From the sequence record OX016465: DNA of 64,000 nucleotides. The stretch is one strand, 5' to 3'. Shown here piece by piece: positions 60,878 to 64,000 of this stretch. The first letter of the stretch is position 1. Each line of letters opens with the position of its first letter. Position numbers and translations under genes: made by a program. Under the pieces are notes generated by a model, which searched no databases, had not been told where the DNA came from, and saw nothing but the letters and a program-made list of their open reading frames with translations. This DNA is from Escherichia phage vB_Eco_Tribble.

Positions 60878-61663
60878 ATGGGTATTGTAAAAATCATCAA
60901 AGGTGATATCTTTGAAGCATTTGATAAAGGTAAATTTGATATCATTGGTCATGGTTGCAACTGTATGAATTTCATGGGTGCAGGTATTGCAGCAACTATT
61001 TCTAAGCGTTATCCAAAAGTGTATGATACTGACACAGAAGTTTACCTGTTTGCAGGTGGCATTCGTCACAAACCCTGTGAAAATTTACTAGGTAATTTAT
61101 CTGTAGCACGTTTAAAACAAGGTCGTATAGCTAACCTTTACACCCAACTTCATACTGGTAAAGATGCACGATACAGTGCTTTAGAGTCATCTTTGAAACA
61201 GCTTAACAGATACTGTGAAGTCAATCAGTTGAAGAAAGTTGGTTTTCCTATGATTGGTGCAGGTATTGGTGGACTTGACCCTCAAGCTGTCACAGTTATC
61301 ATCAATCAGGTGATGAAGAGTGTGGATGTTTATCTGTATGTCTATGAAGGAGAGATGTACCACAAGTTACGCTCAGGTTGGAAGAACTACTGTGAACCAG
61401 AATACTTTGCAGGTGTAGTTGTGTTCACGGATAATGCAGTTACCCTCTTCAGACGAAGAAAAGGTAAGATACATCAAAGTAACCCTCCGGTTGAAAAGAT
61501 GTCTCTAAGTAACGCTCTAGTTACCCACCTGTCGAAGAGCAATCATAGAATTGCCGTGACATTTGGTAGTGATGCAGACACCTACATCTATGCAAGAACT
61601 GATGAGGATATCGAGACAGTTTTCTCTTCGCCAGAAGTTACCTTCTTAGACGCAAAGAACTAA
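60878..61663 (+). CDS. Macrodomain protein (TARG1/DarG-like ADP-ribosyl hydrolase fold) with C-terminal extension
   Basis: GDIFEAFDKGKFDIIGHGCNCMNFMGAGIAATISKRYP resembles the TARG1-type motif …AHCISEDCRMGAGIA… as recalled; second Gly-rich loop FPMIGAGIGGLDP. Confidence 0.55.
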   Translation: MGIVKIIKGDIFEAFDKGKFDIIGHGCNCMNFMGAGIAATISKRYPKVYDTDTEVYLFAGGIRHKPCENLLGNLSVARLKQGRIANLYTQLHTGKDARYSALESSLKQLNRYCEVNQLKKVGFPMIGAGIGGLDPQAVTVIINQVMKSVDVYLYVYEGEMYHKLRSGWKNYCEPEYFAGVVVFTDNAVTLFRRRKGKIHQSNPPVEKMSLSNALVTHLSKSNHRIAVTFGSDADTYIYARTDEDIETVFSSPEVTFLDAKN

Positions 61664-61710
61664 GAAACTTCGTAGGATATTCACAATAGACTAAGCCTTT
61701 CTTATCTGGT

Positions 61711-61915
61711 AAATTTTTCAGGTAAGGAGGGCTTTTTCATTTCAGAATTGTGCAGGTATATTTCTATAGAGAAATCTGTAGAGTGAATTTTGAACTCCAA
61801 AGAGAAAATTCATTTTCAAACTGTGCAGGTAATCTCCAAAGAGCTTTTTCATTTTCAAAACGTGCAGAGAAAAATCAGGTCGGGCAAGAAAAATCATTTG
61901 AGAATTGTGCAGGTA
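61711..61915. repeat. Array of 4-5 direct repeats (iteron-like), core TTTTCATTTTCA(A/G)AANTGTGCAGGTA
   Basis: Copies at 61733-61758, 61805-61832, 61845-61870, 61889-61915 and a partial at 61711-61727, in a 510-bp noncoding region. Confidence 0.6.
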
Positions 61916-62092
61916 GGTGGGTGTAGGTGGGGCTGTCGCCATTTCTCACAAGGCTACCACATCTGAAAATAAAAGTCAAAAGAAAAATTTGTAGCGGATT
62001 GAAAAATAATTCTTGATTGTAGTTCTGTTTTGTGGTAATCGCGCGCACCCGTTTCATTACATTTTTGCCAAAAATATTTTTAAAAATTTTCA

Positions 62093-62121
62093 TTGACTCC
62101 TTGAACGGGTTTTTATAGTAT
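62093..62121 (+). promoter_or_regulatory. Candidate sigma70-type promoter TTGACT-N17-TAGTAT upstream of the small-gene cassette
   Basis: TTGACT 62093-62098, 17-nt spacer, TAGTAT 62116-62121; about 55 nt upstream of ATG 62175. Confidence 0.45.
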
Positions 62122-62174
62122 TTGCATCAGACGGGGCGACAAGCCCGACAGCCTTAAACTAGGAGAACTTAAAA

Positions 62175-62381
62175 ATGCTATACGGTCGTGAATTGATGGT
62201 TACAACTAACGTTAACACAAAGGTAAAACGTTTTTACATGCAAATCTGTGGCGTATGGTCTAGAATATCAGAAGCTGACTATTGCAACTATGTAGAAACA
62301 GCAATCAACTCTGATTGCTACCTTACAAGAAATACAAGAAAGCACATAAGACAGACAGCAGTTTATTACTACGATATCTAA
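62175..62381 (+). CDS. Hypothetical small protein (cassette gene 1)
   Basis: 68 aa; GGAGAACTTAAAA leader before ATG. Confidence 0.4.
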   Translation: MLYGRELMVTTNVNTKVKRFYMQICGVWSRISEADYCNYVETAINSDCYLTRNTRKHIRQTAVYYYDI

Positions 62382-62472
62382 TAAAGTACTTTACAGGGGG
62401 CTTAAAAGTTGATATCTTAAGCCCCAGATAAAGAGCTTTACCACATTAACCCTTAAACTAGGAGATTCAGAA
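62379..62472 (+). repeat. Conserved intergenic repeat A (stop codon - TTTACA - GC hairpin - AGATAAAGAGCTTTACC - RBS)
   Basis: TAATAAAGTACTTTACAGGGGGCTTAAAAGTTGATATCTTAAGCCCCAGATAAAGAGCTTTACCAC…GGAGA; 9-bp stem GGGGCTTAA/TTAAGCCCC. Confidence 0.6.
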
Positions 62473-62856
62473 ATGGCTTATCGTGCACCGAAATTCATCA
62501 ACAAAGACAACTTTCGCAACGTACTGGAGAAGTCACTTGATGAGAATTTCAAAGGCAATAAAATTGTTGTTCACTCATTTAATTTTAAATATGACATCAA
62601 CGGGAATAAAATCAACCATTACACGGCAACCATGATAGATGGTACACTCTCAAGCGAAAAAACCATACTGAATGCACTTGCAGGACGTGGAAAAAACCTG
62701 ATAAAATGCAATAAGAGACGTTATCAGGGTGGCGCATATGGTTATGATGATGCCATTTATCATCTTGAAAATATGGGCTATTCAGTAGAAAAAGTTGGAG
62801 TGCCGCAAATCATTGGTAGCGATGGTTATATAACTATCTTCAAAATTAACAAATAA
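62473..62856 (+). CDS. Hypothetical protein (cassette gene 2)
   Basis: 127 aa; preceded by repeat A and a GGAGA Shine-Dalgarno. Confidence 0.4.
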   Translation: MAYRAPKFINKDNFRNVLEKSLDENFKGNKIVVHSFNFKYDINGNKINHYTATMIDGTLSSEKTILNALAGRGKNLIKCNKRRYQGGAYGYDDAIYHLENMGYSVEKVGVPQIIGSDGYITIFKINK

Positions 62857-62942
62857 AGTACTTTACAGGGGGCTTAAAAGTTGATATCTTAAGCCCCAGA
62901 TAAAGAGCTTTACCACTAAATCCTAAATTGGAGAACTTAAAA
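62854..62942 (+). repeat. Conserved intergenic repeat B
   Basis: Near-identical to repeat A (same hairpin and flanks). Confidence 0.6.
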
Positions 62943-63233
62943 ATGGCTATTATCAAAAACGTTGTAATTACTGCAAAAACTCGTGATGATGCTCGCATTA
63001 TGGCTAAAAAGTTATGCGGTAAAGTTGTTGACAACGGAAAACAGTCTGCTGTAAGGTGGGGCGTGAAGGTTGATAAACAGTTGAAGTTAAAAAATTCACC
63101 AATAAACCTTTTTACATGTGTAAACACTATCGGGAAGACAAATATATACACGAAAAAGGCATATATTAGACGCGTAGCCTTAACCTCCCCCATTCGTACA
63201 ATGAGAGGTCATGCAAAGCTGAAAATTAACTAA
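62943..63233 (+). CDS. Hypothetical basic protein (cassette gene 3)
   Basis: Start reassigned to ATG 62943 (MAIIKNVV…) downstream of GGAGA; 96 aa. Confidence 0.4.
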   Translation: MAIIKNVVITAKTRDDARIMAKKLCGKVVDNGKQSAVRWGVKVDKQLKLKNSPINLFTCVNTIGKTNIYTKKAYIRRVALTSPIRTMRGHAKLKIN

Positions 63234-63321
63234 TAAAGTACTTTACAGGGGGCTTATAGTTCGATAAAGTAAGCCCCAGATAAAGAGCTTTACCACTAAA
63301 TCCTAAATTGGAGATTCTAAA
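63231..63321 (+). repeat. Conserved intergenic repeat C (same stem, different loop)
   Basis: Flanks identical to repeat B; hairpin GGGGCTTA-TAGTTCGATAAAG-TAAGCCCC keeps the stem while the loop differs. Confidence 0.6.
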
Positions 63322-63618
63322 ATGAAATTATCAAATAAAGTTCGTGAAAATCTGAGCAAGTTACTTAATAAAATTGATTTCATTGAAACATCAAGAAATA
63401 GCCACGACGTTATGGAATGGTTACACGGAAAAATTAAAGGACGTCGTGTAGTGATTTGCTTGTGGAATAGTTGCAGGGAGTATAAAAACCCTGTATTGCA
63501 AGTCAATATTTACGATGATACTTTTAAAAGTCCAGTAAAGTCTAAAAGTGACTTATTAGAATCCTATGAGATAACTGTAAGCGGCAAAGTATCACGTAAA
63601 GAGGAATCACCATGCTAA
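63322..63618 (+). CDS. Hypothetical protein (cassette gene 4)
   Basis: 98 aa; preceded by repeat C. Confidence 0.4.
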   Translation: MKLSNKVRENLSKLLNKIDFIETSRNSHDVMEWLHGKIKGRRVVICLWNSCREYKNPVLQVNIYDDTFKSPVKSKSDLLESYEITVSGKVSRKEESPC

Positions 63619-63944
63619 TGACTGGCATCACTGCAATTATTGCCATTTTCGCGCTCTATAAGGCATATAAAGCCTATAACCTAGCAAATAAGGCAATCAC
63701 GCAACAGGTCAATAATAGCCTTGTAATGAGCTTTCTGGAGCGTTTAAGTGATGAACAAATAAAACGGTTAGAAATGAGTTTCAGATTTCAATCGAGAACT
63801 TATCAAATCAGCGACATCTTTAAAGATGATTTTCAGTTAGTCGATGATTATAACTCTCTGATAAATGCTTTAAATATCAGTGACTTAAAAGACTACTACG
63901 CTGTAATTGTTCAAGAACTGAGCAAACGAAAAAATTTATCTTGA
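63612..63944 (+). CDS. Hypothetical protein with N-terminal hydrophobic segment (cassette gene 5)
   Basis: 110 aa; N-terminal ITAIIAIFALY hydrophobic stretch; overlaps the upstream stop. Confidence 0.35.
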   Translation: MLMTGITAIIAIFALYKAYKAYNLANKAITQQVNNSLVMSFLERLSDEQIKRLEMSFRFQSRTYQISDIFKDDFQLVDDYNSLINALNISDLKDYYAVIVQELSKRKNLS

Positions 63945-64000
63945 TTTTGATTTTAAAAACAAGTAAATTACTAATCAACGGGGAGGGAATGACCTTCCCC

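Follow-up and report, generated by a model that had tools for sequence, protein, structure and literature searches.

The DNA analysed here (OX016465, Escherichia phage vB_Eco_Tribble; 64,000 nt, hereafter the window) is by its sequence that of a Felixounavirus, i.e. a Felix O1-like myovirus, and the locus under study is 88–95% identical to Felixounavirus genomes. Positions 62175–63944, which lie downstream of rIIA/rIIB and a macro-domain gene, form the start of a ~6-kb array of about 17 small-gene modules and carry five of these small genes. The features of the locus are as follows, with type A and type B denoting the two kinds of repeated element in the array.

61693–61734, plus strand: intrinsic terminator (17-pair stem and T-run) at the end of the upstream rII...macro-domain operon
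62070–62121, plus strand: predicted main early promoter and its AT-rich upstream tract (sequence and consensus scan)
62130–62149, plus strand: short weak GC hairpin GACGGGGCGACAAGCCCGAC in the 5' leader (direct sequence reading and comparison with type B)
62175–62381, plus strand: gene 1, 68 aa, pI 8.9 (phrog_5293; 180 tblastn records)
62379–62472, plus strand: type A cassette 1 (repeat search, promoter scan, alignment and folding)
62473–62856, plus strand: gene 2, 127 aa, pI 9.5 (phrog_4495)
62854–62942, plus strand: type A cassette 2 (hairpin 62854–62912, −35 at 62862–62867, −10 TATCTT at 62885–62890)
62943–63233, plus strand: gene 3, 96 aa, pI 10.8 (phrog_5089; 206 tblastn records)
63231–63321, plus strand: type A cassette 3, with a differing loop (hairpin 63234–63292, −35 at 63242–63247, −10 TAAAGT at 63265–63270)
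63322–63618, plus strand: gene 4, 98 aa (phrog_4401; 257 tblastn records)
63612–63944, plus strand: gene 5, 110 aa (phrog_4375)
63941–64000, plus strand: type B cassette, incomplete at the window end (sequence and comparison with the copies of relatives)

An earlier note on this DNA had called five ORFs of 68–127 aa with good Shine-Dalgarno (SD) sequences, and both points were confirmed: the ORFs stand at the coordinates listed above, and each ATG is preceded at 7–10 nt by GGAG or GAGG. All five are true protein-coding genes. Variable sites clustered at third codon positions in every gene when 6–8 orthologues of each were compared (by codon position 1/2/3, 8/3/41 for gene 4 and 22/11/55 for gene 2), all five proteins matched a PHROG family from end to end (E 1e-37 to 1e-70), and tblastn placed each gene in 180–257 phage records. 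Because this codon-position conservation belongs to the plus-strand genes, minus-strand ORFs such as 62846–63193 were judged spurious. The start of gene 3, given as TTG 62928 in the mechanical ORF list, is indicated by its SD sequence and by all orthologues to be ATG 62943, and the encoded protein is very basic, with 22 K+R vs 4 D+E. Gene 2 ends in a TAA that forms the first 3 nt of the following repeat, while genes 4 and 5 overlap by 7 nt (ATGCTAA), with gene 5 probably translationally coupled to gene 4. Considering its hydrophobic N-terminus (Kyte-Doolittle 19-residue mean of 1.64 at residue 1), the gene 5 protein is probably membrane-anchored. Gene 4 is the most widely conserved of the five, its 257 records including Erwinia and Hafnia phages of the genus Kolesnikvirus at 33–39% identity.

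The unit is bounded on the left by the terminator at 61693–61734, the sole terminator-like site in a scan of 61500–64000, which corresponds to 't13' in a published Felix O1 list (PMC3185647). The iteron region and candidate promoter placed upstream of the genes by the earlier note were both found, the 'iteron' repeats at 61728–61912 and a sigma70-like promoter at 62093–62121 with −35 TTGACT (62093–62098), a 17-nt spacer and −10 TAGTAT (62116–62121). In wV8 and KhF3 the corresponding promoter site is followed by a canonical type B hairpin, and in the window the hairpin GACGGGGCGACAAGCCCGAC occupies the place where type B elements have their stem-loop. An Rfam search of 61500–64000 with E up to 1 matched no family, and the 64-kb window contains no tRNA genes. 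As a side observation, UAB_Phi87 has a 608-bp terminal repeat and its record begins in the tRNA region.

On the right, the unit ends at 63941 with a type B element, in which a promoter is followed by a 5' hairpin and then by a ribosome-binding site (RBS). Its −35 TTGATT (63941–63946) includes the gene 5 stop codon TGA and is separated by a 17-nt spacer from −10 TAAATT (63964–63969), with the hairpin GGGGAGGGAATGACCTTCCCC at 63980–64000. The same junction is present in Felix O1, wV8, NBEco004 and KhF3 as TTGACA-N17-TAAATT.

The earlier note had also described a conserved hairpin repeat before three of the genes, and copies of the ~92-nt type A element do precede genes 2, 3 and 4, the repeated stretches of ~100 nt lying at 62370–62470, 62842–62942 and 63222–63322. 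Its phrase that the genes are individually framed by these repeats suits genes 2 and 3; strictly speaking it does not apply to gene 1, which stands between the main promoter and a type A element, or to genes 4 and 5, which form one overlapping pair with a type A element before it and the type B element from 63941 after it. The two repeat arms occurred 3 times in 64 kb vs 0.00 expected from shuffles, and outside the array no type A or type B element was found elsewhere in the window. The view of the repeats as mere hairpin frames was not borne out by their anatomy, which is that of a composite of promoter, stem-loop and RBS, and this composite organisation is what makes the repeats the more informative component of the locus. 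The order in type A is upstream stop codon, promoter interwoven with a hairpin, SD leader and ATG: the repeat opens with the upstream stop TAA or directly follows it, and at the 3' end a conserved leader, CCTTAAACTAGGAGA or CCTAAATTGGAGA, runs into the ATG. The promoter spacer is formed by the hairpin's 5' arm, and the −10 by bases of its loop and 3' arm. In cassette 1 the hairpin spans 62382–62440 (lower stem 62382–62393/62429–62440, upper stem 62397–62405/62417–62425), with −35 TTTACA at 62390–62395, −10 TATCTT at 62413–62418, a predicted start at about 62426–62427 and SD GGAG at 62462–62465.

Our alignment comprised 43 distinct copies of type A, drawn from the Ounavirinae genera Felixounavirus, Mooglevirus and Kolesnikvirus. 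TTTACA was invariant in 43/43 copies. Exactly 17 nt after it comes a TAnnnT hexamer whose T, A and final T were likewise invariant, in a loop and 3' arm of the hairpin whose other positions vary. Part of this invariance could be structural, since stem pairing also involves TTTA of the −35 and the final T of the −10. An independent scan of viral metagenomes (IMG/VR), which left the downstream hexamer unconstrained, found TAnnnT at 17 nt in 45 of 47 distinct hairpin-bearing copies, in the form of 11 different hexamers, and at 18 nt in one further hairpin-bearing copy; among chance matches without the hairpin it was present in only 2/43. All three type A copies of the window scored as promoter-like in a consensus scan, in which such matches are common in the AT-rich DNA of this region (13 vs 7.9 ± 2.6 in shuffles), and the hexamers reach only 9/12 of the consensus, with a GC-rich spacer and discriminator. 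By sequence the type A −35 is T4-early-like, the T4 early −35 consensus being GTTTAC (PMC1524935). A reading of TGCTTTA/AGCTTTA as MotA boxes of T4 middle promoters was rejected, because the first box is wrongly spaced to the −10 and the second would start transcription past the SD sequence.

The minimum free energy fold of type A coincided with the proposed hairpin at −21.9 to −22.4 kcal/mol, an interrupted stem of 20 pairs in which a 3x3 internal loop separates 11 lower from 9 upper pairs. Across the aligned copies, pairing was present in 95.7% of cells vs 56% or less with a slid partner. Compensatory and wobble changes included G-C to U-A in 8 copies and C-G to U-G in 20, with one pair showing four pair types, and these counts are not independent events because the copies share descent and recombination. 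The plus-strand fold was the more stable in 32/43 copies, as expected for a structure in sense RNA; for copies 1 and 2 of the window, stability was equal or favoured the minus strand. The internal-loop bases (CA / GA) were invariant. Scanning 61500–64000 revealed no T-run or U-tract after the upper or the full type A stem, which is followed by AGATAAAG or CCACTAAA, and a reading of type A as a rho-independent terminator was therefore rejected.

Comparison of eight Felixounavirus and Mooglevirus arrays showed that they are collinear and differ by whole modules. The closest relative is Alf5, whose gene 1 is 99% identical. It is devoid of genes 2 and 3, and at its junction stands one chimeric element whose 5' part equals cassette 1 of the window and whose 3' part equals cassette 3. 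Genes 2 and 3 are also absent from Felix O1, and gene 1 from wV8; record counts are 180 for gene 1 and 206 for gene 3 vs 257 for gene 4. Judged by these genome comparisons, several of the five genes are dispensable accessory genes. Further rearrangements include two tandem type A elements in Barry that enclose a non-coding remnant, differing array positions of family F25 in KhF3 vs Mordin, relocation of the gene 4 homologue in Kolesnikvirus and duplication of family F17 within the array. The elements were 78–88% identical vs 67–75% or no detectable match for the genes they flank (Mordin, Prophecy and SPARTY), and the flanked genes are mutually unrelated, falling into separate BLAST clusters and PHROGs. 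The near-perfect collinearity within Felixounavirus is more readily reconciled with deletion or allelic exchange than with free mobility of the cassettes. Blastn with the type A element returned only Ounavirinae records and two records named for other hosts, which we take to be mislabelled.

As the earlier note had stated, the five proteins have no recognisable domain: Pfam gave no significant match for any of them, all five PHROG families are annotated as 'unknown function', and sequence searches of the PDB returned nothing with E < 0.1. Large-database searches with genes 2 and 3 recovered only 38–44 clusters, all of them close Ounavirinae 'hypothetical' proteins. The structure prediction and structure-based search suggested in the same note for each protein was run on genes 2 and 3; the AlphaFold2 models, built on shallow alignments, were of low confidence (pLDDT 59 for gene 3 and 54 for gene 2), and Foldseek found no match to either in the PDB below E = 0.1. 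Homology to characterised anti-defence or takeover families was thus found neither by sequence for the five proteins nor by fold for genes 2 and 3. Since sigma70-type promoters are those of the host RNA polymerase, the genes would be of early type, and we infer from sequence that the five products are early, mostly dispensable accessory proteins. Host-takeover and counter-defence genes typically have such a profile. The role in host takeover or anti-defence that had been proposed for them may be plausible: the sigma70-type promoters and the accessory distribution agree with it, and neither a homologue of established function nor any other link of the five to such a role was found. The only expression data that we located come from end-point RT-PCR of Felix O1, a coarse assay in which the homologue of gene 4 (ORF17) was maximal at 25 min and the neighbouring array genes ORF16, 20, 21 and 22 peaked at 5 min (PMC3185647); its list omits the homologues of genes 1 and 5.

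The reading that we favour, and regard as fairly probable, is that types A and B are portable expression cassettes resembling the promoter-early stem-loop (PeSL) cassettes of T4-type phages, and that the array consists of autonomous, recombining modules. Host sigma70 RNA polymerase would start at the strong promoter 62093–62121, and in DNA each type A element would offer its own promoter and ribosome site to the gene downstream, with genes 2 and 3 and the gene 4–5 pair each served by a cassette of their own. In read-through RNA from upstream the whole hairpin would fold and act via attenuation, processing or 3' protection, so that each gene would be insulated from its neighbours. Given that the same 60–90 nt of near-identical sequence flanks unrelated genes, recombination between cassettes is expected to move whole modules; homologous recombination of this kind would allow deletion, insertion and occasional relocation of modules with expression undamaged, and would account for the presence/absence mosaic among relatives. 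We infer the promoter activity of type A, the RNA role of its hairpin and the mechanism of recombination from the anatomy, conservation pattern, covariation and indel junctions observed in the aligned copies.

One alternative, which we consider unlikely, is that the type A hairpins serve for processing by RNase III, like those between T7 early genes. A long transcript from 62093 would then be cut in the internal loops to yield monocistronic mRNAs, each protected by a stem at its 3' end, and the promoter-like hexamers would be incidental; such processing could also coexist with promoter function. RNase III cleavage is proven for the five T7 early sites, which fold into a like arrangement of two stems and an internal loop at −20 to −25 kcal/mol. 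A stem of about two helical turns at −22 kcal/mol, invariant CA / GA in the internal loop and an intercistronic position without a terminator tail all speak for such a site, and the G·U pairs and plus-strand bias indicate a structure in sense RNA. The processing view leaves unexplained why the T, A and T of TAnnnT in the apical loop are held at exactly 17 nt from TTTACA across 11 loop variants in which the loop bases next to them vary, given that apical loops play no part in recognition by the enzyme. In addition, no Rfam family matched, and we found no literature linking Felix O1 to RNase III processing.

A bolder proposal is that type A is the recognition site of a dedicated phage-encoded factor (for instance a regulator, an RNA-processing enzyme or a helper of recombination) and the array a managed, integron-like platform. 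Several invariant bases go beyond pairing, namely the internal-loop CA and GA, GATAAAGA at the predicted start and two AAAGnnCTTT boxes, and we rate this proposal as decidedly unlikely. If true, one 64-nt sequence would act as DNA promoter, RNA processing or insulation signal and recombination site, and the type A array would be an actively managed cassette platform in a virulent phage.

The two near-palindromic AAAGnnCTTT boxes flank the GC hairpin, one over the −35 and the other at ~+4 to +13, and raise the very improbable alternative that type A is an operator for a phage or host DNA-binding protein, with a dimeric regulator switching the array promoters off (or on) jointly. Each box is an inverted repeat, TAAAGTACTTTA being a perfect palindrome, and both are almost invariant across genera, including T10-A13, T49-A54 and T57-T59, which could covary if pairing alone mattered; the authors of the PeSL work brought up a similar possibility for the GGGG...CCCC motif (PMC2839356). 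However, no candidate regulator was found, the type B elements of the same array are devoid of the boxes, and the boxes pair as the lower stem, with G·U in variants, which already accounts for much of their conservation. That the repeats are plain rho-independent terminators or passive leftovers of tandem duplication, with no role in promotion or recombination, has hardly any likelihood: terminators are marked in this array in some GenBank records, the stems are GC-rich and the array holds the F17 duplication, but neither the upper nor the full stem has a U-tract and the scan gave no terminator in the elements, the genes between them come from unrelated families, element identity across three genera exceeds that of these genes, and true array terminators differ, e.g. 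GCCCCTCACAGGGGCTTTT after a 180-aa gene.

Felix O1-like phages are in widespread use in Salmonella typing, biocontrol and therapy, and to our knowledge their early programme is essentially unmapped; in the literature on these phages we found no transcriptome, TSS map, mention of PeSLs, RNase III work or anti-defence screen. Under the cassette model, each small early gene would apparently have a portable promoter, an insulator hairpin and a ribosome site, which amounts to a map of candidate starts, and the cassettes would explain why the ~6-kb array differs in content between otherwise near-identical isolates. The about 17 cassette genes, including the five described here, form a natural set for screening for host-takeover or counter-defence activities, and the cassettes could serve as short conserved homology arms for engineering Felix O1-like phages.

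The repeats themselves appear in existing records. The Felix O1 record (Whichard et al. 2010) contains a 57-bp repeat, CTTTACATGGGGCTTAAAAGTCTGTAAAGTAAGCCCCAGATAAAGAGCTTTACCACT, which equals type A, and a 39-bp repeat, TTGACACTGG...CATCAAC, which equals type B, and the wV8 record annotates type A and type B repeats as DR_1 to DR_9. Both records give them as direct repeats only, with no reading as promoter, hairpin or recombination site, and the paper on wV8 contains no discussion of those annotated in its record. Among other known systems, the T7 sites R0.3, R0.5, R1, R1.1 and R1.3 are likewise intercistronic two-stem hairpins with an internal loop and of similar stability; they too separate small early genes, and several adjoin promoters. 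They differ in having 4–5-nt apical loops, asymmetric internal loops and no embedded sigma70 −35/−10. [quoted passage not shown] 2015, PMC4309531). These share with the present array near-perfect intergenic sigma70 motifs (TTGACA-N17-TAgAAT) in a variable, presumed early region of ~11 kb, whereas they number 2–6 copies per genome, are unrelated in sequence and have no described stem-loop or shared RBS module.

The closest parallel to the cassette model is the PeSL cassettes of the T4-type phages RB49/phi1, PST and nt-1 (Arbiol et al. 2010, PMC2839356; Comeau et al. 2014, PMC4122927). A PeSL consists of a stop codon in AT-rich DNA, a sigma70 −35/−10, a GGGG...CCCC stem-loop, an SD sequence and an ATG, with the stem-loop mostly between −35 and −10 or overlapping the −10 and containing G-T pairs, and PeSLs are associated with ORFan indels (PMC2839356); their promoter activity, terminator activity and mini-circles have been shown experimentally (PMC2839356, PMC4122927). 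The array described here belongs to another phage subfamily, the Ounavirinae, its type A adds an 11-pair lower stem made from two near-palindromic boxes, two fixed types alternate in place of five loosely defined PeSL subclasses, and its order is largely collinear. The likeness is one of anatomy, as read from the sequence of the Ounavirinae elements, and it extends over the ~100-nt intergenic composite with an upstream stop in AT-rich DNA and a sigma70-type −35/−10, the GGGG...CCCC stem-loop with G-T pairs between −35 and −10 or over the −10 (type A) or just past it (type B), the SD sequence and ATG at the 3' end, the clustering among small ORFans in a variable early region and the indels between close relatives that leave a single chimeric junction element. 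The PeSL principle of modular shuffling would thereby extend from T4-type phages to a second myovirus lineage, and the analogy suggests that the two lineages reached convergent solutions for hosting accessory genes.

By sequence comparison, the window comes from a Felix O1-like myovirus of the genus Felixounavirus (Ounavirinae): positions 61600-64000 aligned over their full length with Barry, LinBro, Meda and other phages at 88-91% identity, and with Alf5 at 95% identity over 73% of the query. In annotated relatives the region follows rIIA, rIIB and a gene for a macro-domain 'phosphatase'; its counterpart in Felix O1 is ORF15-ORF18 with the adjoining ORFs, every one of which is labelled hypothetical. 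By analogy, we read the five-gene region as a segment of a modular early-gene array (a ~6-kb run of small genes) resembling the promoter-early stem-loop (PeSL) cassettes of T4-type phages. T4-type phages already provide examples of this kind of system, and the repeats themselves had been catalogued before. The features discussed are as follows.

60878-61663: macro-domain gene directly upstream of the array (Pfam Macro E = 9.7e-8; PHROG 335 'phosphatase')
61693-61734: terminator 3' of the macro-domain gene, the sole terminator-like site in 61500-64000
62093-62121: main promoter
62175-62381, +: gene 1 (68 aa)
62473-62856, +: gene 2 (127 aa)
62943-63233, +: gene 3 (96 aa)
63322-63618, +: gene 4 (98 aa)
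63612-63944, +: gene 5 (110 aa)
63941-63969, +: type B promoter after gene 5, TTGATT-N17-TAAATT, with the gene 5 stop codon inside the -35
63980-64000: type B hairpin GGGGAGGGAATGACCTTCCCC, ending at the window end

Beyond the terminator, 510 nt of non-coding sequence carry short direct repeats; this stretch is 82-97.5% identical in relatives. Five such repeats, ~28-34 nt long with a spacing of 26-47 nt and a consensus of about TTTTCATTTTCAAAnnGTGCAGGTA, occupy 61728-61912, between the terminator and the main promoter.

All five ORFs with Shine-Dalgarno (SD) sequences reported in the earlier note were present as described, with GGAG or GAGG 7-10 nt 5' of each ATG; gene 3 starts at ATG 62943, as opposed to the TTG of the mechanical ORF list. 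Among 6-8 orthologues, variable sites at the three codon positions numbered 9/9/33, 22/11/55, 11/8/26, 8/3/41 and 24/13/52 for genes 1-5, a pattern indicating purifying selection at the protein level in all five. Because the plus-strand genes show this codon-position conservation, the minus-strand ORFs at 62846-63193 (115 aa, opposite gene 3) and 63303-63506 (67 aa, opposite gene 4) are probably spurious. The minus strand has promoter-like hexamers too, at 63506-63479 and 63874-63847.

Each gene matched one PHROG family end to end, all five of 'unknown function', and tblastn found genes 1-5 in 180, 249, 206, 257 and 240 phage records, annotated 'hypothetical protein' in essentially every case. 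Searches of Pfam and of PDB sequences and the PHROG annotations were all empty, which bears out the reported lack of known domains; for genes 2 and 3, AlphaFold produced low-confidence models for which Foldseek returned no significant match. The gene 2 and gene 3 families were confined to Ounavirinae, bar a few weak partial gene 2 matches in ~147-kb enterobacterial phages. In clustering, the gene 2 family groups with a 221-aa Kolesnikvirus protein (Erwinia phage Prophecy, locus L009 5398-6063), which suggests that the 127-aa protein corresponds to a single domain within a larger ancestor or fusion. The gene 3 product is strongly basic (pI 10.8), gene 4 is the array's most conserved member across genera, and gene 5, whose product has a hydrophobic N-terminus, overlaps gene 4 by 7 nt and is probably translationally coupled to it. 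In Felix O1, RT-PCR detected transcripts of array ORF16, 20, 21 and 22 at 5 min, with the gene 4 homologue reaching its maximum at 25 min; the list omits the gene 1 and gene 5 homologues (PMC3185647). The host-takeover or anti-defence role proposed earlier would be compatible with the location and dispensability of these genes.

The intergenic repeat termed type A occurs as three ~100-nt copies in the window (cassettes 1-3, preceding genes 2, 3 and 4). The reported framing by repeats is confirmed with a refinement: strictly, only genes 2 and 3 are individually framed, the five genes form four modules, and the element after gene 5 is of a different type. From stop codon to next ATG, type A reads TAAAGTACTTTACAgGGGGCTTA-loop-TAAGCCCCAGATAAAGAGCTTTACCAC-leader-GGAGA-N-ATG; its arms gave 3 matches in 64 kb, with 0.00 expected by chance. 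ViennaRNA predicted a single structure common to all three copies (-21.9 to -22.4 kcal/mol), in which an 11-pair lower stem containing one A·A mismatch is joined through a 3x3 internal loop to a 9-pair upper stem capped by a loop of 11 nt. When one copy was used as a blastn query, it matched 1429 places in 287 phage records, ~5 per genome, within Ounavirinae (Felixounavirus, Mooglevirus, Kolesnikvirus and relatives on Erwinia, Hafnia and Cronobacter); the only two other records, whose names give Staphylococcus and Campylobacter as hosts, are taken to be mislabelled.

In an alignment of 43 distinct copies from ten loci and three genera, the structure paired 95.7% of cells, compared with 33-56% when the 3' partners were slid by 1-3 columns. 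A compensatory G-C to U-A change was present in all eight Kolesnikvirus copies and the top pair of the upper stem showed four pair types. Changes on one side only, giving G·U, were frequent (C-G to U-G in 20 copies), and the sense strand gave the more stable fold in 32 of the 43. Given this pairing, covariation and strand bias, the hairpin is being kept, in the simplest reading as a structure of the sense transcript; because the copies are related by descent, none of these counts represents independent events.

The extended two-stem hairpin resembles the early RNase III sites of T7 in geometry and stability, and because of this likeness RNase III processing is the main rival for its role at the RNA level, either alone or as an added function. 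Processing by itself, however, fails to explain a conserved -10 in the apical loop. The macro-domain protein is annotated in Meda as a 'possible RNase III inhibitor' by analogy with YmdB, which would be interesting if type A hairpins were RNase III sites.

Invariant columns of the alignment were not confined to the stem. TTTACA was fixed in 43/43 copies, and exactly 17 nt past it a T, an A and, five positions on, a T were fixed, while the three bases between and the remaining loop varied. In an independent IMG/VR scan, whose pattern constrained nothing but CTTTACA and, at the appropriate distance, GATAAAGAG, TAnnnT lay at 17 nt in 45 of 47 distinct hairpin-forming matches, comprising eleven hexamers (TATCTT, TAGTAT, TAAAGT, TACCTT, TACAGT, TACCAT, TAATCT, TAAGAT, TAACTT, TATAGT and TAGAGT); one more hairpin-forming copy had TAGTAT at 18 nt, and chance matches without a hairpin had TAnnnT at 17 nt in 2/43. 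Fixed -12T, -11A and -7T around a free middle, at a set spacing from a -35-like hexamer, are the signature of a sigma70 -10, as opposed to that of an RNA loop.

The -35 is similar to the GTTTAC consensus of T4 early promoters (PMC1524935), and a consensus promoter scan called all three window copies, two with a TG extension. None of the three has a U-tract, and the terminator scan called none there. Starts are predicted at about 62426, 62898 and 63278, just beyond the upper stem; because they fall past it, transcripts from type A promoters would lack the hairpin, and read-through transcripts would carry it.

Type B, the second kind of element (promoter, 5' hairpin and ribosome-binding site), is cut by the window end and in relatives runs on into the same conserved leader and SD. 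There are 4-7 copies per array, with TTGACA, TTGATT or TTGCAA as -35 and covarying stems (GGGGAGGG/CCTTCCCC, GGGAGGT/ACCTCCC, GGGGC/GCCCC). The main promoter is a type B variant, and at its site in wV8 and KhF3 the canonical type B hairpin follows. Whichard et al. gave both elements in Felix O1 merely as 57-bp and 39-bp direct repeats (PMC3185647), and the wV8 record labels type A and B elements DR_1 to DR_9.

Calling SD-preceded ORFs in the loci and clustering their products revealed that the macro-domain gene is followed by one array of ~17 gene families. Seven Felixounavirus genomes, the window and Mooglevirus Mordin are collinear across it, with whole modules present or absent. Genes 2 and 3 are missing from Alf5 and from Felix O1, which has a 170-aa gene between genes 1 and 4, and gene 1 is missing from wV8; Meda, NBEco004, KhF3 and Mordin possess every one of these genes. 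Junctions were always type A or type B, except for one true terminator. In Alf5, the closest relative (gene 1 99% and the intergenic region 97.5% identical), the single element between genes 1 and 4 combines the cassette 1 loop of the window with the cassette 3 leader, which places the crossover inside the shared TAAGCCCCAGATAAAGAGCTTTACCAC. Barry carries a tandem type A pair, 99% identical, around a ~60-nt non-coding remnant (L001 10344-10562), suggestive of the scar left by a lost cassette or of an unoccupied insertion site. Identities form a mosaic along the segments, with gene 5 nearest Barry (95.5%) and gene 1 nearest Alf5. One family (F25, 62-65 aa) lies before gene 1 in KhF3 (L007 5818-6006) and after a 76-aa gene in Mordin (L008 6493-6690; 40% identity, E = 3e-9), and the gene 4 homologue lies far further downstream in Erwinia/Hafnia Kolesnikvirus arrays (L009 9928-10239; 39% identity, E = 1e-16), so modules have moved within the array in addition to being lost. 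The elements are more conserved than the genes they flank in Mordin and the Kolesnikvirus phages. Another family, F17, occurs twice in the same array (90-aa and 65-83-aa genes; L001-L008), a duplication within the cassette array. Outside the window, Barry has a dense field of short repeats in several overlapping families (CTGTTAAG, CTGTAAAG and CTATAAAG motifs; L001 14400-15020), downstream of the array and ahead of divergently transcribed genes.

The testable content lies in where transcription is predicted to start internally, in what becomes of the hairpins in RNA and in a proposed use of the cassettes for recombination. Among the papers searched, none ties Felix O1-like phages to PeSLs, RNase III or transcript mapping. 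Repeated early promoters, without the other cassette parts, are present in Pseudomonas relatives of Felix O1 (PMC4309531). The anatomy matched the PeSL cassettes of T4-type RB49 and phi1 feature for feature: an upstream stop codon in AT-rich DNA, sigma70-like -35 and -10 hexamers, SD and ATG on the 3' side, and a GGGG...CCCC stem-loop with G-T pairs, mostly lying between the hexamers or across the -10, or else following the -10 (PMC2839356). PeSLs likewise cluster among ORFans in variable regions and are associated with indels that leave one chimeric element (PMC2839356). Experiments on PeSLs demonstrated promoter activity, terminator activity and excised mini-circles; the Felix O1-like elements share the anatomy, and we treat the two as analogous families.
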